Assembly: GCA_003104935.1 (NCBI GenBank)
Contig: PQAE01000004.1
Coordinates: forward strand, 6,835 to 70,834
DNA: 64,000 bases
Reading direction: 5' to 3'
Origin: Parcubacteria group bacterium
Lineage (GTDB): Bacteria > Patescibacteriota > Patescibacteriia > UBA1558 > GWA2-36-10
Positions 1,272-48,209 of this stretch are shown one piece after another (position 1 is the first letter of the stretch; each line of letters begins with the position of its first letter). The notes below the pieces were generated by a model. The model searched no databases and was not told where the DNA came from. It worked only from the letters and a program-made list of their open reading frames with translations. The position numbers and the translations under genes were made by a program.

Positions 1272-3761
1272 ATGCCCAAGAAAATACTTAAACCAATTAA
1301 AGAAGCAGAACCTACCCCGGCCACCTATGATCGGGTGGAGCAGTTGTCCATCGTGGACGAGATGCAGAGCTCTTATATCGATTATGCTATGAGCGTAATC
1401 GTCTCCCGCGCTCTGCCTGATGTCCGCGATGGCCTGAAACCGGTGCATCGTCGTATCCTTTACGCCATGTGGACTCTGGGACTGCGCCATAGCGCCAAGT
1501 TCAGAAAATCCGCCACAGTGGTCGGTGAAGTGTTGGGCAAATACCATCCCCACGGTGATGTGGCGGTTTATGATTCTATGGTACGCATGGCCCAGGATTT
1601 TTCCATGCGCTATCAGCTGGTTAACGGCCAGGGAAACTTTGGCTCTATGGACGGTGACGGCGCCGCGGCTATGCGCTATACCGAGGCCAAATTGACGGCT
1701 CTGGCTGAGGATCTGATGACGGATATTGAAAAAGACACGGTTGATTTTGTGCCAAACTATGACGGCGCGCATCAGGAACCGCGGGTTTTGCCGGCCAAGC
1801 TTCCTAACCTGCTTTTAAACGGCGGCACTGGTATTGCCGTCGGTATGGCCACCAATATTCCGCCCCACAATTTAGGAGAACTCTGCGAGGCCATTGCCCT
1901 GCTGATAGACAAACCGGATTCTACCGTCGAAGACCTGATGCAACACGTCAAAGGACCTGATTTTCCCACGGGCGGAGTTATCTATAATATCGATGATATC
2001 AAGGCCGCCTATGCCACCGGCCGGGGAGCGATTGTTTGCCGGGGCGAAGCTGAGATTTCCGAAAACAAATTAGGTCAGTTTCAGATTATTATCAGCTCCA
2101 TTCCTTTTCAGGTGAACAAAGCGACGCTCTTGGAAAAAATAGCCGAGCTGGTCAAAGATAAAAAAGTGGAAGGCATCAAAGATCTGCGCGATGAGTCGGA
2201 CAAAGACGGCGTGCGCATCGTGATTGACCTCAAAAAAGAAGCTTATCCTAAAAAGATTTTAAATAATCTTTATAAGCATACTCAGCTACAGGAAAAGTTT
2301 CACGTCAATATGCTGGCCCTGGTGGATGGCATCCAGCCGCGCGTGCTTAACCTTAAATCAATCTTAGAGGAGTATATCAAACACCGTCAGGAAGTCGTAG
2401 TGCGCCGGACTAATTATGAACTGGCCAAGGCCAAAGACCGGGCTCACATCTTAGAGGGTTTAAATTTGGCCCTGGACAAGATCGACGCCGTGATCAAGAC
2501 TATCCGCGCCTCCAAAGACAAGGAAGTAGCCAAAACAAACTTGATGACCAGATTTAAGCTGAGCGACCGCCAAGCTACCGCTATTTTGGAAATGAGACTG
2601 CAAAATCTGGCTAACCTGGAAAGATTAAAGATTGAAACCGAGTTAAAAGAGAAATTAAAACTGATTAAAGAATTAACCGACATTTTGAAGAGCAAAGTCA
2701 AGGTGTTGAAGATTGTCCGGGACGAACTCATGGATTTGAACATCAGATTCAAAGATGATCGCCGCACCAAGATCGTCAAATCCGCTATTGATAAGATGAC
2801 CACCGAAGATCTGATCCCAAACGAATCAACGGTCGTGACCATGACTCATGACGGCTACATCAAGCGTCTGTCTCCCGAGACCTTCAAGACGCAGAGCCGC
2901 GGCGGCAAGGGAGTGATCGGTCTGACCGCCAAGGAGCAGGACGACGTCAAATTATTTTTCACGGCCAATACTCATGACAACCTGATGTTCTTTACAACGG
3001 TCGGTCGGGTCTTTAAACTGATGGCTTATGAAATCCCGGCCATGACTCGCACGGCCAAGGGACAAAACATTGTCAATTTTTTACAGCTGGCGCCGGAAGA
3101 ACAAGTGTCTTCAGTATTACAATGTCAGGACCTGGCGGCTTTTAAATTTCTGGTAATGATTACCAAAAATGGTCTGATCAAGCGGGTGGCCCTAGACCAG
3201 TTTGAAAACGTCCGTCGCTCCGGACTGATCGCCATCAAATTAAAATCCGGTGATGACCTCTTGTGGGTCAAGCCATCGGGCGGCAATGATGATATAATGC
3301 TGGTTACCGCCCAGGGGCAGTCTATTCGCTTCAAAGAAAAGATGGTGCGCACTATGGGACGCAGTGCCGCCGGTGTGCATGGCATCCGGGTTAAAAAAGG
3401 CGACGAGGTGGTCGGCATCGATCTGGTCAATGAAGGCAAAGTCAGTAAGGATGAGCAATTATTAGTGGTGATGGCGCACGGCTTTGGCAAGCGGACCGGA
3501 CTGGGAAATTATAAAGTGCAGGGCCGCGGCGGATCGGGTATCAAGACCGCCAGTATCAGCACCAAGACCGGGGCGATTGCCGTAGCTAAGATTGTCAGCG
3601 CCCGGCTGGAAAATGACGACATGATTATTATTTCCCGCAAGGGGCAGGTGATTCGCTTGCCTATAAAGTCGGTCAGCATTTTAGGCCGCGCGACACAAGG
3701 AGTCAGACTGATGCGTTTTAAAGACGCTGATGATAAAGTTTCTTCGGTAACTTTTGTCTAA
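1272..3761 (+). CDS. gyrA: DNA gyrase subunit A
   Basis: 829 aa. Carries GyrA signature segments [59 protein letters not shown] and a C-terminal beta-pinwheel region. Confidence 0.95.
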
Positions 3762-6390: not shown

Positions 6391-6668
6391 TTTTGGTAAA
6401 AGAAAATCAGGACCCCCGTATCGCGCTTAGCGCGACGGGGCAAGCCCATCAAAATATAATGTTCTCAAAAGACCCGAGTAAATCGGGTACTATAAAATTT
6501 GGTAAAAGAGAATCAGGACCCCGTAGAAAACGCATGGCTCGTTCTACGGGGCAAGCCCATCGAAATATAATGTTTTAAAAAAAGACCCGAGTAAATCGGG
6601 TATTGTAATACTCGGTAAATGAAATCAGGACCCATTTAATCGCCCCAAGTGATCAAATAAGTCCTGAT
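6391..6668. repeat. intergenic tandem repeat, ~2.5 units of 107-113 bp, each with conserved hairpins and a TATAAT box
   Basis: Unit 1 runs 6391-6497, unit 2 6498-6610, and a partial unit 3 from 6611. Shared blocks are GGTAAAAGARAATCAGGACCCCGTA, a variable CCCCGTA...TACGGGG stem-loop, CGGGGCAAGCCCATCRAAATATAATGTT, and the AGACCCGAGTAAATCGGGT hairpin. Confidence 0.7.
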
Positions 6669-15580: not shown

Positions 15581-16420
15581 TTACTTTTTATTTCTTTCCG
15601 CTAACTTCACAGTATTATAAAGCAACATCGCCACAGTCATCGGTCCGACACCTCCTGGCACAGGTGTAATGTGCGAGACTTTTTCAAAAACTCCGCTGTA
15701 GTCCACGTCGCCCACAGTATATTTATCGTCAATTTTATTAGTGCCAACATCGATCACTATCGCCCCATCTTTGACCATCTCTTCAGTGATAGCAAAAGCT
15801 TTACCAATAGCTGTAATTAAAATATCAGCGGTTAGAGTTTTGTCCTTGAGACTTTTTTCTGTGGGAGAAACTATTTCTGTAACAACATCCTGATCGTTTA
15901 ACAATTTAGCTAAAGGTCGGTAAAGTATCTGGCTCTTGGCCACAATGACCGCCTTTTTTCCGTTTAAGTTTTCGCCGGTAGATTTTATGAGTTTAATTAT
16001 GCCGAGAGGTAACCCAGGAATAAAGTCGGTTTGCTGAGCCAAGAATTTTTCAATATTTTTTGCATGAAAACCGTCCACATCTTTGGTCGGATCAATAGCC
16101 GAAACTATTTTATCAGTGTCCAGGCCGGCGGGTAAAGGTAGTTGGACCAAGATCGCATCTATTTCTGAATCATTATTTAAAAAGTTTATAGTTTCTAATA
16201 CCTTAGTTTCACTACTGTCCGCCGCTAATAGATATTCATGAAAAGCAATGCCAATTTTCTGGCAGGCTTTCTTTTTCAGGCCGACATAGAGGCGGGAGGC
16301 GGGATCATTACCAACCAAAACGACAGCTAAATTGGGATTTAGTTTTTTAGCAGTGATTTCTTTGGTTAGCTCAGCTTGGATCTCTTCGGCCAAAGCTTTG
16401 CCGTCTATGATTTTAGGCAT
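15581..16420 (-). CDS. folD: bifunctional methylenetetrahydrofolate dehydrogenase/cyclohydrolase FolD
   Basis: 279 aa. MPKIIDGKALAEEIQAEL start, VILVGNDPASRLYV and ITPVPGGVGPMTVAML motifs. Confidence 0.92.
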   Translation of the reverse strand: MPKIIDGKALAEEIQAELTKEITAKKLNPNLAVVLVGNDPASRLYVGLKKKACQKIGIAFHEYLLAADSSETKVLETINFLNNDSEIDAILVQLPLPAGLDTDKIVSAIDPTKDVDGFHAKNIEKFLAQQTDFIPGLPLGIIKLIKSTGENLNGKKAVIVAKSQILYRPLAKLLNDQDVVTEIVSPTEKSLKDKTLTADILITAIGKAFAITEEMVKDGAIVIDVGTNKIDDKYTVGDVDYSGVFEKVSHITPVPGGVGPMTVAMLLYNTVKLAERNKK

Positions 16421-16428
16421 AATATTTT

Positions 16429-16514
16429 GCTATTGCGAGGACCCTGGACCATATGGTGCAGGGGACGAAGCAATCCCAATGAGATTGCCGCGCCCTTTCG
16501 GGCTCGAAAAGCGG
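16429..16514. repeat. structured intergenic repeat, copy A of the ATTGCGAGG...GCAATC...GATTGC...CGCCC...GGGCTCG family
   Basis: Lies between the glyA stop and the folD start. Shares ATTGCGAGG, a variable hairpin (CCCTGGACCATATGGTGCAGGG), GCAATC-loop-GATTGC and CGCCC-loop-GGGCTCG with copies at 34348-34422 and 37285-37356. Confidence 0.6.
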
Positions 16515-16515
16515 A

Positions 16516-17781
16516 TTAATTTAATTCCGGATACAGCGGAAACTCATCCATCAAATTAAGTATTTTCTTTTTATTTTCTGGTGTGGCTTGTTTAGACTTG
16601 AGACTATCAATAATAATTTCCGCGATCACAGCTATATCTTTTTCTTTCAGCCCGCGGGTGGCCAGGGCGGCCGTACCCAGCCGGATGCCAGAAGGATCCA
16701 TGGGCTTACGCTGGTCAAAAGGGATCATATTTTTATTAGTGTAGATATTGACACTATCCAGAAGAGTTTCCGCTTCCTGACCGGAGAGCCCTACGGTGGT
16801 GACGTCTAACATTAGCAGATGATTATCAGTGCCACCAGAGACCATTCTAATGTCGGCTTCTCTGAATTTATTTTCTAGAATTTTGCAATTAGTCAAAATT
16901 TGTTTTTGATAATCCACGAAATCAGAACTCAGTGCCTCGCCAAAAGCTACGGCCTTGGCCGCCACGATGTGTTCTAGCGGTCCACCCTGCATGCCCGGAA
17001 AAACAGCCGAGTCAATTTTTTGGGCCAGGTTTTTTTTATCTTCCGGATTCAGGCGGTCGGCTATTTTGGACAAAATAATGGCGCCGCGCGGTCCGCGTAA
17101 AGTCTTGTGCGTAGTAGTAGTGACTACATCGGAGACCGGTATGGGATCGGGGTGTAATTTCGCGGCCACCAGTCCGGCGATGTGAGCCATATCCACCATC
17201 AGATAAGCGCCGACCTCATCGGCTATTTTTTTAAATTCAGCAAAATCAATTTTCCGGGAATAAGCCGAGGCACCGGCCAAAATAATTTTTGGTTTATGTT
17301 CCTGGGCTAATTTTCTGACTTCAGCAAAATCAATCAGCTCGGTTTCTTTATTTACTCCGTAGTGAATAAAATTGTAAAATTTACCGGAAAAATTAACCGG
17401 ATGTCCGTGCGTCAGATGTCCGCCATGGGCCAGAGAAAAACCGAGGATAGTGTCGCCCAGATTGGCCAGAGCAAAATAGGCTTCGGCATTGGCCTGACTG
17501 CCGGCATGGGGCTGGACATTGGCATGCTCGGCACCAAATAGCTGTTTGGCTCTATTTATAGCCAGTGCTTCGGCCTGATCGATAAATTCATTGCCGCCAT
17601 AGTAGCGTTTGCTGGGGTAACCCTCAGCATATTTATTGGTTAGCACCGAACCGGCCGCTTCCAAGACGGCCAGGGACACAAAATTTTCCGAGGCGATCAT
17701 TTCCGCACCCTGGCGTTGGCGCTGTAGTTCGGCGGCGATAATTTTAGCAATGGCCGGGTCTGATTTTTCCAGATACTTCAT
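16516..17781 (-). CDS. glyA: serine hydroxymethyltransferase
   Basis: 421 aa. IASENFVS, the PLP-lysine region [14 protein letters not shown], and YPSKRYYGG. Confidence 0.95.
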
Positions 17782-34061: not shown

Positions 34062-34073
34062 AAATTATTTTAA

Positions 34074-34151
34074 TACCCCCTCTGTCTCTCGACAAGCTCG
34101 AGACATCTCCCCCCTAATTTAGGGGGAGCGAAAGAGGGGGGGGTATTTTTT
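34074..34151 (+). terminator. nested G/C-tract hairpin terminator (family shared with 1184-1224 and 36826-36902)
   Basis: TACCCCCTCTG...CTCGACAAGCTCGAG...TCCCCCCTAATTTAGGGGGAG...AGAGGGGGGGGTATTTTTTATTTGG. Outer C/G-tract stem, inner hairpins, then a T-run. Confidence 0.6.
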
Positions 34152-34156
34152 ATTTG

Positions 34157-34259
34157 GTCATTCTGGAGCGAAGTCGCGTCTGACACGACGAGCGATAGAA
34201 TCTATGAGATTATATACATATAGACTCTATCGTCGCGCTGAGCGTGACTCCAGAGTGAC
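34157..34259. repeat. long imperfect inverted repeat (~40-50-bp arms) centred on GAGATTATATACAT
   Basis: The left arm GTCATTCTGGAG...CGACGAGCGATAGAATCTAT and the reverse complement of the right arm GTCACTCTGGAG...GCGACGATAGAGTCTAT pair at the outer 12 bp and inner ~16 bp. Confidence 0.55.
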
Positions 34260-34347
34260 AGTGGGGTAGTGTTAATCTATTGACAAAATCAATAAAATGT
34301 GAGGGGCTTCTTTCTTTTTATAAAAATGCCGACGATAGCCATTTACA

Positions 34348-34422
34348 GTCATTGCGAGGAGCTTAGGCGACGACGCAATCTAAAAGCTATGGATTGCCAC
34401 GCCCTAACGGGCTCGCAATGAC
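34348..34422. repeat. structured intergenic repeat, copy B (ATTGCGAGG...GCAATC...GATTGCC-CGCCC-loop-GGGCTCGCAATG)
   Basis: The outer stem ATTGCGAG/CTCGCAAT closes the element. Shares its blocks with copies A and C. Confidence 0.6.
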
Positions 34423-34566
34423 CAAATGCCATGCTGTCGGCATTTTTTTAGAGAGTTTTTAAAAATCCCCCACTTTCCGACGACGCGAGGAGGCTTATTG
34501 TTAGCTTTATTTTTATTGCCAATTCTCGCCAAATTGAGTAATATAAAGGCAAGGAAAATCGCTGTT

Positions 34567-35535
34567 ATGACTGATTTGGAAAAAGCAATTTTAAAAACCA
34601 TCACCTATTTTGATGTTTTTAATTATCCCCTGACAGACTGGGAGATACAGAAGTGGCTTTACAAATATCCTGGCACCACCAAGTTATCGGAAATTCGTAA
34701 TGTATTGGCGAACAGCCAGATTCTAAAAAAAGAATTGATTCTCAGCGAAGGATTTTACAGTTTGCGGGGCCGGGAAAATATTTACTTACAACGTAAACAA
34801 AATAATAATCTGGCGGAAAGAAAATATAACCGGGCCTTGCGTCTGGTTAGGCTCTACCGCTTTGTTCCTTACATCAAGATGGTGGCGGTCTGTAACTCGT
34901 TGTCTTATAGCAATGCGGCTGATGACAGCGACATTGATTTTTTTATCATCACCAAAAAAAATAAGATCTGGATAGCCAGATTCTTGGCGATCATCCTGGT
35001 CGGCCTATCCGGTTTCCGGCCGAGAGTCGGACATACCCGTGATGCCTATTGCCTTAGTTTTTTTATTGACGAGTCCAAACTAGATATTCGCGACCTGTCT
35101 TTGGGCAAGCACGATATCTATTTTACATATTGGCTTCGTCAGCTGATGCCAATTTACAATCCGGCCGGGCTTTATGAAAAATTTTTAGCGGCCAATAGCT
35201 GGACCAATAGTTTTTTGCCAAATGCTTATGCTAATAAATTTGTTCGCGAGGTGACCAGCGGCCAGACCAGCCGACGCTGGCGTAAATTTATCGGCGTGCT
35301 ATTATCTCCGCCTTTTATCAGCCGGGGACTGGATGCCGTTTATCGTCAGCTCCAGATGAGGATCCTGGGGCGCAATCTCAAAGCCATCATCAATATCGAC
35401 ACCCGGGTGGTGGTCAATGATCGCGTCCTCAAGCTGCACAACAATGACCGCCGTGAGTATTTTTATAAAAAATGGAAAGAATTAATTCGCCCTTTATTAG
35501 ATAAATATGAAGAACCTAGCGCACAAATCATTTAA
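34567..35535 (+). CDS. hypothetical protein (possible minimal nucleotidyltransferase-like motif S..DSDIDFFII), conserved next to O-antigen-ligase-like gene
   Basis: Start at the internal ATG 34567 (MTDLEKAIL); the track ORF starts at 34426 inside the repeat region. No confident family. Confidence 0.35.
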   Translation: MTDLEKAILKTITYFDVFNYPLTDWEIQKWLYKYPGTTKLSEIRNVLANSQILKKELILSEGFYSLRGRENIYLQRKQNNNLAERKYNRALRLVRLYRFVPYIKMVAVCNSLSYSNAADDSDIDFFIITKKNKIWIARFLAIILVGLSGFRPRVGHTRDAYCLSFFIDESKLDIRDLSLGKHDIYFTYWLRQLMPIYNPAGLYEKFLAANSWTNSFLPNAYANKFVREVTSGQTSRRWRKFIGVLLSPPFISRGLDAVYRQLQMRILGRNLKAIINIDTRVVVNDRVLKLHNNDRREYFYKKWKELIRPLLDKYEEPSAQII

Positions 35536-36909: not shown

Positions 36910-36938
36910 TTGACAAAATAATCTTAGCACTCTATAAT
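36910..36938 (+). promoter_or_regulatory. sigma70-type promoter of groES-groEL (TTGACA-17 nt-TATAAT)
   Basis: TTGACA at 36910-36915, a 17-nt spacer, TATAAT at 36933-36938. Confidence 0.8.
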
Positions 36939-36950
36939 ACAGAGTGCTAA
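36924..36950 (+). promoter_or_regulatory. CIRCE operator (HrcA binding site) TTAGCACTC-N9-GAGTGCTAA
   Basis: Perfect match to the CIRCE consensus, overlapping the -10 box upstream of groES. Confidence 0.9.
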
Positions 36951-37284: not shown

Positions 37285-37356
37285 GCTATTGCGAGGTCGG
37301 CTAGTGCCGTGGCAATCGCAGTGAGATTGCTTCCCGCGCCAAGCGCGGTCGCAAAA
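37285..37356. repeat. structured intergenic repeat, copy C, occupying the groES-groEL spacer
   Basis: GCTATTGCGAGG-TCGGCTAGTGCCG-TGGCAATCGCAGTGAGATTGC-TTCCCGCGCCAAGCGCGGTCGCAA. Same block order as copies A and B. Confidence 0.6.
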
Positions 37357-37380
37357 GCTTAAAGAAAGGAAATAAATTTT

Positions 37381-42862: not shown

Positions 42863-42950
42863 GGAGGGTTCGCATAGTGGCCTAGTGCACACGCTTGGAA
42901 AGCGTGCAACCCGCAAGGGTTCGAGAGTTCGAATCTCTCACCCTCCGCCA
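42863..42950 (+). tRNA. tRNA-Ser (anticodon GGA), type II with long variable arm, CCA encoded
   Basis: Acceptor GGAGGGT/ACCCTCC. Anticodon stem CACGC/GCGTG with loop TTGGAAA. T-arm GAGAG-TTCGAAT-CTCTC. 88 nt. Confidence 0.9.
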
Positions 42951-42965
42951 AATATATTAATGCAC

Positions 42966-43052
42966 GCCGAAGTGGTGAAATTGGTATACACGCACGGTTC
43001 AGAGCCGTGTGACCGTGAGGTCATGGAGGTTCAAATCCTCTCTTCGGCACCA
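42966..43052 (+). tRNA. tRNA-Leu (anticodon CAG), type II, CCA encoded
   Basis: Acceptor GCCGAAG/CTTCGGC. Anticodon loop TTCAGAG. Variable arm TGACCGTGAGGTCA. T-arm GGAGG-TTCAAAT-CCTCT. Confidence 0.9.
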
Positions 43053-43118
43053 AATTTCGACAAGAGTGACTTGTCGAAATTTGTCCCGAACGAAGTTGAG
43101 GGACAACGTACTAGATAA

Positions 43119-43194
43119 GGGCTGTTAGCTCAGTTGGTAGAGCGCTACATTCGCATTGTAGAGGTCGGGAGTTCGACTCTCCCACAGTCCACCA
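43119..43194 (+). tRNA. tRNA-Ala (anticodon CGC), G3:U70 identity pair present, CCA encoded
   Basis: GGGCTGT...ACAGTCC acceptor with G3-T70. Anticodon loop TTCGCAT. D-arm GCTC-AGTTGGTA-GAGC. T-arm GGGAG-TTCGACT-CTCCC. Confidence 0.9.
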
Positions 43195-43272
43195 TGGTCG
43201 CATGGCTTCCACCTTCCCCCAGACTTGATCCGGGGTTCGGTGGACAGGCAGTTTCGTAATTCTTGAATATTG

Positions 43273-43349
43273 GGGCATGTAGCTCAGTTGGTTAGAGCGC
43301 TACATTCACATTGTAGAAGTCGGAGGTTCGAGTCCTCCCATGCCCACCA
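43273..43349 (+). tRNA. tRNA-Val (anticodon CAC), CCA encoded
   Basis: Acceptor GGGCATG/CATGCCC. Anticodon loop TTCACAT. T-arm GGAGG-TTCGAGT-CCTCC. Confidence 0.9.
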
Positions 43350-43569
43350 TTTTTGAGAATCTCGCAGCGCCGAGCTATAGGCGAGGCGCGAAGACCCCGG
43401 CGCAGGCCGGGGCAGGTGCGACCACCATCCTTCGCTCCTTGTTACACTCGGAGCTACGGATGGCAGGCCATTTTACAAACAAAATTTGCCTTAACTTTTC
43501 GGGCCATTGGCCCGCCAAAGCTCAAAGGCGTAGTCGGGGGTTAGCGCAGTTTAGTGAGAGAGTTATAAT

Positions 43570-43644
43570 CGGGGTGTAGCGCAGTGGTAGCGCGCACGGT
43601 TCGGGACCGTGAGGCCGTGGGTTCAAATCCCACCACCCCGACCA
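43570..43644 (+). tRNA. tRNA-Pro (anticodon CGG), C1:G72, CCA encoded
   Basis: Acceptor CGGGGTG/CACCCCG. Anticodon loop TTCGGGA. T-arm GTGGG-TTCAAAT-CCCAC. TATAAT sits directly upstream at 43564-43569. Confidence 0.9.
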
Positions 43645-46729: not shown

Positions 46730-47788
46730 ATGTCAAAAGCAAGCCGATTTTTATTAGAAATATTTCCCCTCTTAATCGTGGGGATATTTTTTGTTTGTTT
46801 CCAAATTTACGCGCTTAATAATCAAGTTAATCCTACTATTAGGGTCAGAGTTTGTGGAAACTTTATCGCCGAAGCTGGCGAGGAATGCGATACAAACGAT
46901 TTTGCGGGAAAAACTTGCGCTACTTATGGTCACAATACCGGAGTTTTGACCTGCAATCCGGATTGTACGGTCAATGCTACGGCGTGTTCTACCACTGTCG
47001 TGCCTCCGTCTCCGGGTGGAGGCGGTGGCGGTGGCGGTGGCGGAGCGCCGGCGCCGACGGTGACTAGAATAAATTTTTTGGGCCGAGCCTATCCTTTGAG
47101 TAAAGTGGTTTTGTTAAAAGATGGACAGTTAGCGATCGAAACTATCTCCGGGCCGGATGCTGTTTTTTCCTTGTCTCTGACCGGTTTATCCGCCGGTAAT
47201 TACAATTTTGCGGTCTATAGTGAAGATGCTGATCACCGCCGCTCCGCTTTATTTACTTTTCCGGTCTATATCACCAGCGGAGCAGCCACGACCGTTAGTG
47301 GAATATTTTTATCACCCACCATCGCTATCGATAAGATCGAGGTTAAGTATGGAGATGATCTGACCATTTTTGGGCAAAGTCTGCCAACGGCGACAGTGAC
47401 GATCAATGTGAACTCTAACCCCTCAATCTTAAAACAAACCCAGACCGATGCTAACGGAGTTTACCTTTATAAATTTGATACCACGCAGGTAGAGAAAGGC
47501 GACCACTCAGTCCGTTCCAAAACCGTAGCCGCCGCCGACATTAGCCCCTATGGTTTGAGTCTGGCCTTTAAAGTCGGAGAAAAAAATACCTTGAGTAATG
47601 GTGAGATCAACCCACCGGCGTCCGGCCGGGGAGATGTCAATAATGATGAGAGAATCAATCTGGTAGATTTTTCCATAGTCGCTTATTGGTATAAGAGAAC
47701 TAAGCCGCCGGCGGCGGCGGATCTAAATAGTGACGGCAAAGTCGATTTGATAGATTTTAGTATTCTTGCTTATTATTGGACAGGGTAG
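46730..47788 (+). CDS. secreted Cys-rich protein with poly-Gly linker and C-terminal tandem dockerin (type I) Ca-binding repeats
   Basis: Signal/TM LLEIFPLLIVGIFFVCF. Cys-rich block (CGNFIAEAGEECDTNDFAGKTCATYGHNTGVLTCNPDC) and G10. The two C-terminal segments DVNNDERINLVDFSIVAYWY and DLNSDGKVDLIDFSILAYYW fit the dockerin D-x-N-x-D-G-x-(I/V)-(N/D)-x-x-D-(F/L) pattern. Confidence 0.7.
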   Translation: MSKASRFLLEIFPLLIVGIFFVCFQIYALNNQVNPTIRVRVCGNFIAEAGEECDTNDFAGKTCATYGHNTGVLTCNPDCTVNATACSTTVVPPSPGGGGGGGGGGAPAPTVTRINFLGRAYPLSKVVLLKDGQLAIETISGPDAVFSLSLTGLSAGNYNFAVYSEDADHRRSALFTFPVYITSGAATTVSGIFLSPTIAIDKIEVKYGDDLTIFGQSLPTATVTINVNSNPSILKQTQTDANGVYLYKFDTTQVEKGDHSVRSKTVAAADISPYGLSLAFKVGEKNTLSNGEINPPASGRGDVNNDERINLVDFSIVAYWYKRTKPPAAADLNSDGKVDLIDFSILAYYWTG

Positions 47789-47936
47789 TGAAAAGCGACA
47801 TCCATTACTTTTTAATAAACATGAATAAAAAAATATTTTCATAAGTCAGGGCAGAAAATTTTAGTCGCTTTCTACTACCCCGGGACCCAGTTATAAGTCG
47901 TTCCAGGATAAGTCAAAAAGATAAATTATTAATCTT

Positions 47937-48209
47937 ATGGTCAAATTTTATTACGTTTATGTGTTGCAGAGCAAAGTCACAGGTGATCTATATAAGGGAT
48001 TGACCACGCATTTAAATCAACGTTTACAACAACATAATAAGGGATTCAATTTTTCTACAAAAGGAAAAAGGCCGTGGATGATAATTCATTATGAGGCATA
48101 TCGTGACGAAAAAGATGCGAGACGGCGAGAAAAGTATTTGAAAACGAGCCAGGGAAGTCGCACGCTAAAACGTATGTTAAAAGAGTATTTTTATGCGCAA
48201 AAAAGATAA
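47937..48209 (+). CDS. GIY-YIG nuclease family small protein (YhbQ/UPF0213-like)
   Basis: FYYVYVLQSKVTGDLYKGLTTHLNQRLQQHN is a GIY-YIG-type motif. 90 aa. Confidence 0.6.
   Translation: MVKFYYVYVLQSKVTGDLYKGLTTHLNQRLQQHNKGFNFSTKGKRPWMIIHYEAYRDEKDARRREKYLKTSQGSRTLKRMLKEYFYAQKR

Follow-up and report, generated by a model that had tools for sequence, protein, structure and literature searches.

Ssn nucleases and their hairpin repeats

In Neisseria, the hairpin repeat NTS (CGTCATTCCCGCGMAVGCGGGAATCYRG), whose layout is CGTC-ATTCCCGCG-MAV-CGCGGGAAT-C-YRG, is bound by SsnA, a 94-aa single-domain GIY-YIG nuclease (Chenal 2025, PMC11893778). SsnA binds the NTS only as single-stranded DNA, cuts a few nucleotides upstream of it and does not bind RNA (PMC11893778). 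The C located just 3′ of the palindrome is the nucleotide most crucial for SsnA binding, and the GTC on the 5′ side of the palindrome matters for cleavage in Neisseria (PMC11893778). In the same study, ssnA genes were described as typically flanked by repeats, an analogy was drawn with REP elements and RAYT, and Ssn-hairpin units were proposed, as a hypothesis only, to be mobile elements (PMC11893778). An Ssn-related motif (SRM) is an imperfect palindrome of 20-50 nt that can fold back on itself as single-stranded DNA, and it takes its orientation from a conserved (C/H)GTC that stands outside the palindrome on the 5′ side. For the co-occurrence of SRMs and ssn genes at genome level, 81% is reported. 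The published SRM search pattern, HGTCWYN(0-2)YYVSBRHN(0-5)WNVSBRGN(0-2)RNCYNB, is an operational string and not a biological definition.

We analysed a window of 64 kb (64,000 nucleotides) from a Parcubacteria group (CPR) genome, in which a short repeat had been noticed in three copies. Each of these copies is very probably a gene-less inverted pair of Ssn-related hairpin motifs, the full-length form of which carries an ssn gene between its halves. The window element is not a new kind of repeat; it is a new sequence class of the Ssn-associated hairpin repeats and a new addition to their host range, present here as gene-less doublets. We named "A-type" the sequence type whose hairpin is closed by ATTGC/GCAAT. 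Its half-elements share with the NTS the layout of (C)GTC, hairpin, C and YRG; in both systems the hairpins stand on either side of a stand-alone GIY-YIG gene encoding ~95 aa, and many copies are dispersed between genes. Inverted pairs are also found beside ssnA in Neisseria.

The two systems nonetheless differ. The A-type stem, ATTGC...GCAAT, encloses a purine-rich internal loop and an apical hairpin that varies, whereas the NTS forms a continuous ATTCCCGCG stem; A-type halves measure 26 to >50 nt, and in the window two of them join to form a compact doublet of 72-86 nt, separated by a spacer of 7-11 nt. As for the host, it is a CPR genome, and the ~73 kb of it that were read yielded no Ssn-clade gene. 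None of 237 A-type halves and no site in the window matches the SRM pattern, which does match a control NTS sequence; the A-type motif class therefore falls outside the operational definition of the Ssn study. The Ssn system is in this way extended to CPR genomes and to a motif class that the published pattern misses. A literature search with A-type and B-type sequence strings returned only unrelated primer matches, and it was an NTS-like string present in another sequence (L013) that led to the Ssn paper (Chenal 2025, PMC11893778).

Altogether, a very common and largely unannotated bacterial repeat is identified here and linked to the recently discovered Ssn single-stranded DNA nucleases. We take this repeat to be a source of spurious "hypothetical protein" ORFs. 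The dRS3 and NIMEs of Neisseria are also short segments bounded by inverted hairpin-forming repeats. The A-type elements resemble them by their inverted hairpin halves and by arrays that vary between strains, but none of the window copies contains the dRS3 consensus, ATTCCC-N8-GGGAAT.

Three doublets built from A-type half-elements

The three copies were found where the initial annotation had placed them, with end coordinates corrected by at most 2 nt, and their common block order is seen in all three (Table 1). The motif GCAATC-N(4-14)-GATTGC matches three times in the window, against 0.08 matches expected by chance, and ATTGCGAGG is present without mismatch at exactly three sites of the window, every one inside a copy. 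When a covariance model trained on 74 family members was run against both strands of the window, the three copies were the only matches to the doublet at E <= 3e-8; scores were near-equal on the two strands, owing to the near-palindromic sequence of the element. In the same genome, a fourth copy (L472:1-77) lies 3.7 kb upstream of the window start and is truncated by the end of its contig.

Table 1. Coordinates, in window positions, of the repeat copies and of other features discussed in the text.
Feature	Position	Strand	Description
Copy 1	16429-16512	.	Variant doublet, GCT replacing GTC at both ends; 37 bits, E 3e-8
Copy 1, left half	16429-16475		Long apical hairpin
Copy 1, spacer	16476-16482		
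Copy 1, right half	16483-16512		Degenerate: one G of the closing stem gone
Sibling doublet	34157-34259	.	GTC-ATTCT...AGAAT-C (left), GTC-ACTCT...AGAGT-C (right, - strand reading); weak model match (E 0.03), direct reading
Host terminator-like hairpin	34322-34450	+	AAAAATGCCGAC...GTCGGCATTTTTTT, copy 2 at its apex; one continuous fold, -53.7 kcal/mol, z = -5.7
Copy 2	34348-34422	.	Canonical doublet; 66 bits, E 1e-16, both strands
Copy 2, left half	34348-34380	+ (reading)	GTC-ATTGC...GCAAT-C
Copy 2, spacer	34381-34391		
Copy 2, right half	34392-34422	- (reading)	Same layout, GTCATTGCGAGCCCGTTAGGGCGTGGCAATC
Copy 3	37285-37358	.	Variant doublet, GCT termini as in copy 1; 41.6 bits, E 1e-9
Copy 3, left half	37285-37317		
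Copy 3, spacer	37318-37324		
Copy 3, right half	37325-37358		
Stand-alone GIY-YIG gene	47937-48209	+	90 aa; 33-37% identity to Ssn proteins, pairwise E 1e-8 to 2e-9

As read from a sequence comparison with more than 300 relatives, the unit of the repeat is a half-element consisting of (C/T)GTC, a hairpin closed by ATTGC/GCAAT and then a C, and a copy is made of two such halves in inverted orientation. The interior of the A-type hairpin is rich in purines, and its apical stem-loop is variable. In the alignment, the 5′ part of the doublet reads Y-GTCATTGCGAG(G), a variable hairpin and CG(AA/TG/CG)GCAATC; the spacer comes next, then GATTGC(TT/CA/CG)CG, a second variable hairpin or a short connector, and finally (C)CTCGCAATGAC-R. 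The terminal inverted repeats are 11-12 bp long, and the spacer between halves measures 4-30 nt in the set scanned. GTC is kept in almost all of the 74 aligned members, and the C 3′ of the palindrome is invariant in the family alignment. The three bases following the A-type half are CAG in 130 of 449 doublets. Apical segments are highly diverse, with 315 distinct sequences at one position, mostly hairpins, among which GAA/GNA triloops are the commonest.

All six half-elements of the window possess GCAAT-C. GTC is found in both halves of copy 2 and GCT in all four halves of copies 1 and 3; since the GCT...AGC termini are common to these four halves, copies 1 and 3 form a sub-lineage. Folded singly as single-stranded DNA, five of the six halves adopt a hairpin closed by ATTGC/GCAAT, the exception being the right half of copy 1. 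A half folded in this manner presents NGTC, the ATTGC/GCAAT-closed hairpin and a C, which is the geometry of the NTS.

The repeat had initially been described as an outer stem enclosing several hairpins, with compensatory substitutions that would argue for selection on this structure. Each full copy does fold into an outer stem with internal hairpins (z -2.2 to -5.2), but the four-way junction is not supported as the selected structure: it is one possible fold, and comparative data point to two half-element hairpins. Indeed, 23-35 of the 74 members lack pairing at positions 3-4 of the "central stem", while across sibling types each half invariably has two complementary 5-mers, one following GTC and the other preceding the final C. 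Because the central stem is often unpaired and changes are compensated within halves, two independent hairpins are favoured over the junction. Examples are the compensated stem variant ATCGC/GCGAT in L095 and one Tisiphia doublet that carries ATTCCTGC/GCAGGAAT in one half beside ATTCCCGC/GCGGGAAT in the other. Three copies alone cannot demonstrate compensation; it is the wider family that reveals it, within halves. Within this family, Watson-Crick compensated pairs in the closing stem are few (6 versus ~40 broken), and covariation of the core stem is not assessable because the search pattern fixed those positions. The outermost Y...R bases of the doublet agree above chance (C-G 36 and T-A 29, versus T-G 9 and C-A 5).

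A sibling doublet is also present in the window (Table 1). Its stem 5-mers are compensated within each half and mismatched between halves, and it probably corresponds to another Ssn-like specificity.

The nuclease gene between the halves and the host range of the motif

In other genomes, A-type halves flank a nuclease gene. In two Aerophobetes sequences (L204/L205), a GIY-YIG gene is flanked by GTCATTGCGAGgagcgaagcgacgaaGCAATC, which stands 19 nt ahead of its ATG, and by GATTGCttcgggaccttgtccCTCGCAATGAC, 33 nt beyond its stop codon, and in L230 such a gene is likewise placed between a forward half and a reverse half. A-type halves were found at most 300 nt from a GIY-YIG gene in all nine independent gene contexts examined, and they adjoin a frameshifted GIY-YIG ORF in L095. 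This ORF has more than 8000 homologs of 95-97 aa; the proteins are 70-89% identical across Aerophobetes, Cyanobacteria, Verrucomicrobiota, Planctomycetota, Elusimicrobiota and Chloroflexota.

The A-clade GIY-YIG (PF01541) protein aligns without gaps to the SsnA ortholog of N. gonorrhoeae (47% identity, E 1e-33) and is 39% identical to the product of another NTS-flanked gene, in L326. The N. gonorrhoeae ortholog is 94 aa long, carries Y6, Y17 and E64 as published (PMC11893778) and is flanked by exact NTS repeats. The sequence in which it was found (L474, NZ_CP119140.1, 2.17 Mb) is labelled a plasmid and is evidently the chromosome; the ssnA ortholog is without annotation there. NCBIfam returned no significant family for these GIY-YIG proteins, its matches being far below the cut-offs, and the PDB gave a weak UPF0213 match only. 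The A-type elements are thus a family of defined anatomy that is associated with Ssn genes. Because the same halves flank a GIY-YIG gene elsewhere, the window copies can be read as gene-less MITE-like doublets: they have the hairpin-gene-hairpin structure with a spacer of 7-11 nt in place of the gene. The proposal of a REP/MITE-like DNA repeat was right in spirit, as the element is dispersed, intergenic, palindromic and found in either orientation.

Two further arrangements were observed beside GIY-YIG genes. In L087 (4269-4800), a gene encoding a 95-aa GIY-YIG protein is followed, ~40 and ~160 nt downstream, by two copies of TGTCACCCTGAGCCTGCCGAAGGGTCG, which is another motif type, an arrangement consistent with a separate hairpin motif for every nuclease clade. 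L208 and L209, from near-identical strains, differ only in an element array downstream of the GIY-YIG gene (~3340-3470), with a full doublet in one and repeated right-end fragments in the other, and this difference indicates a fast turnover of arrays.

The window itself contains a stand-alone GIY-YIG gene (Table 1), which was considered as the cognate nuclease. It is probably not: the protein is a distant Ssn relative, and half-elements were found neither on the flanks of the gene nor in the 25 kb around its homologs. The gene shows conserved synteny across Patescibacteria with a downstream gene for a ~290-aa membrane protein. A Parcubacteria group MAG has an annotated protein identical to its product. 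A hairpin, GGTAGTGAAAAGCGAC...GTCGCTTTCTACTACC (47786-47880), precedes the gene, and the outer stem of this hairpin recurs upstream of homologs in L218 and L222.

We scanned one genome per species with ATTGCGAGG-N-GCAATC-N-GATTGC. Among the matches listed, the A-type motif occurs in at least 119 genome stretches from roughly 20 phyla and in one archaeon, Ca. Methanoperedens. The bacterial hosts among these matches include Planctomycetota, Chloroflexota, Omnitrophota, Nitrospirota, Gemmatimonadota, Acidobacteriota, Bacteroidota (Pedobacter, Flavihumibacter, Polaribacter), Cyanobacteria (Microcoleus, Rivularia), Alpha-, Beta-, Gamma- and Deltaproteobacteria, Spirochaetota, Margulisiibacteriota and many CPR groups. 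The motif is also present in at least 120 viral or proviral contigs. The repeat, which had been taken for a novel family, belongs with the Ssn-associated hairpin repeats. While the genome under study has three copies in a 64-kb window and the fourth close upstream, no element was detected in 906 kb (80 loci) around the groEL genes of the nearest relatives of the window. The distribution is therefore very wide but patchy. Near the dispersed copies, no recurrent protein-coding neighbour emerged from 1776 ORFs of at least 100 aa at 119 loci.

The hypothesis that Ssn-hairpin units are mobile gains testable support from the doublets without a gene, from this patchiness and from the occurrence of a near-identical nuclease in distant phyla. 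Furthermore, pairs of A-type motif and nuclease are candidates for new single-stranded DNA cleavage specificities.

Proposed origin and possible mobility of the copies, and their genomic setting

The full-length unit would consist of a stand-alone Ssn-family gene for a protein of 95-97 aa between the two halves, an architecture that matches NTS-ssnA-NTS. By analogy with SsnA, we infer that A-type motifs may be cleaved, and that the elements may be active in this genome. The hairpin would form on single-stranded DNA, for example during replication, transformation or conjugation; the nuclease would then bind the hairpin together with the 3′ C and cut a few nucleotides 5′ of GTC. As each strand of a doublet carries one forward motif, two cuts are predicted, which would bracket the element on opposite strands. 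The short doublets may be non-autonomous, MITE-like derivatives of hairpin-ssn-hairpin, dispersed among the spacers between genes and the loops of hairpins. Copy 2 has an intact appearance. With GCT at the termini of copies 1 and 3, and damage to one half of copy 1, these two may be inert or answer a variant specificity.

Several observations suggest mobility: the patchy distribution, the identity of gene and motif across phyla, the copies nested at the apex of larger hairpins (copy 2 and those of L054), the long groES-groEL spacer and the rearrangement of arrays. No clean pair of empty and filled sites was found among the relatives compared; an exact look-up of GroEL, sought for an empty site, gave no match, and the nearest metagenome relatives are at most 69% identical. 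The L208/L209 difference was considered as a clean insertion and rejected, as what separates the two is an array rearranged internally. For L054, a composite transposon was also rejected, since housekeeping genes lie between the repeats and the element is nested in a 142-nt palindrome. The same holds for the TGA at the end of the spacer as a relic of the ssn stop codon: TGA ends just 9% of spacers. At its two ends the spacer usually has complementary dinucleotides, which merely extend the palindrome. We consider it possible, although somewhat short of probable, that hairpin-ssn-hairpin is an element that moves autonomously by means of its single-domain GIY-YIG ssDNA nuclease, and the doublets its horizontally spreading MITE-like offspring. 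Such an element could have given rise to the spread of the doublet over more than 20 phyla, the CPR and at least one archaeon, and to a preference for hairpin loops and short intergenic spacers. If true, this would be a class of element not yet demonstrated, nuclease-driven rather than transposase-driven.

Transposase-driven origins were weighed against the reading of the copies as Ssn-related doublets. A REP/BIME/REPIN element mobilised by a RAYT (Y1 HUH) transposase of the IS200/IS605 superfamily would have much in common with the A-type: an inverted hairpin doublet in many copies, no target-site duplication, a single repeat-flanked gene and an intergenic location, including sites within operons; the analogy is that of the Ssn paper itself. 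We nonetheless hold it to be highly improbable. The GTAG/GTGG (GT(A/G)G) tetranucleotide is missing from the 5′ end, the termini being (Y)GTCATTGCGAG, the gene between the halves encodes a GIY-YIG nuclease and not a Y1 transposase, and no recurrent transposase-like ORF was seen among the 1776 ORFs at the 119 loci. Moreover, REPs are species-specific, unlike the A-type sequence, which is conserved from phylum to phylum. A classical MITE descended from an insertion sequence with a DDE transposase, which we judge as improbable as the RAYT origin, would agree with the length of the terminal inverted repeats, with the small size and dispersion of the copies and with the existence of a longer, gene-carrying relative. 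That relative, however, encodes the 95-aa GIY-YIG nuclease, the sub-terminal hairpins are conserved, which is atypical of DDE ends, and flanking direct repeats are almost absent (2 of 91 elements at lengths 2 and 3, none of 91 at 4-8 nt); the suggested check for target-site duplications thus came out negative.

The other two alternatives place the function of the element in RNA. A structured RNA (sRNA or cis-acting mRNA element) selected for the four-way junction is very unlikely, and the mobile small-RNA module that had been suggested is not supported. The fold is stable as RNA from both strands, two copies are inside operons and must be transcribed, and the terminal pair covaries (C-G 25, U-A 22, U-G 7). 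But the element has no fixed orientation relative to transcription, the nested pairing is broken at the central-stem positions mentioned above, and the motif is linked to the gene of a DNA nuclease whose characterised counterpart is inactive on RNA (PMC11893778). The search of Rfam 15 yielded above threshold only five tRNAs, the best other match being RAGATH-28 (11 bits versus 45), and groESL is already under its own perfect CIRCE operator. Least credible of all, in our opinion, are intrinsic terminators or attenuators that merely share sequence. Copy 2 is within a hairpin followed by a T-run, but this T-run belongs to the outer host hairpin and lies outside the element; copies 1 and 3 have no T-tract and stand between co-transcribed genes, and an identical motif across phyla would not be expected of terminators.

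The setting of the Ssn-related doublets in the window is as initially described: all three are intergenic. Copy 1 occupies the 95-nt spacer between glyA (stop at 16516) and folD (start at 16420), both on the - strand. Copy 3 lies in the groES-groEL spacer, starting 3 nt past the groES stop and ending 22 nt before the groEL start. This spacer is 98 nt long here, compared with a median of 40 nt in 76 relatives, and would be 24 nt without the 74-nt element. Copies 1 and 3 are most likely co-transcribed as stable stem-loops in the glyA-folD and groES-groEL mRNAs, any effect on these mRNAs being secondary. Copy 2 is downstream of uvrA and near a hypothetical gene. The called start of the ORF at 34426-35535 falls inside the 3′ arm of the terminator and is therefore probably not the true start. 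Past uvrA, palindromes are piled up (34062-34450): a G/C-rich terminator-like hairpin (~34068-34150), the sibling doublet and the terminator with copy 2.

Upstream of groES, the perfect CIRCE operator TTAGCACTC-N9-GAGTGCTAA (36924-36950) is overlapped by a perfect sigma-70 consensus promoter, TTGACA-17-TATAAT (36910-36938). This CIRCE is an ordinary HrcA control site without relation to the repeat. Elsewhere in the window, two tandem units of ~111 nt, 86-92% identical, are found in an intergenic region (6435-6622), and five tRNA genes form a cluster at 42863-43641.
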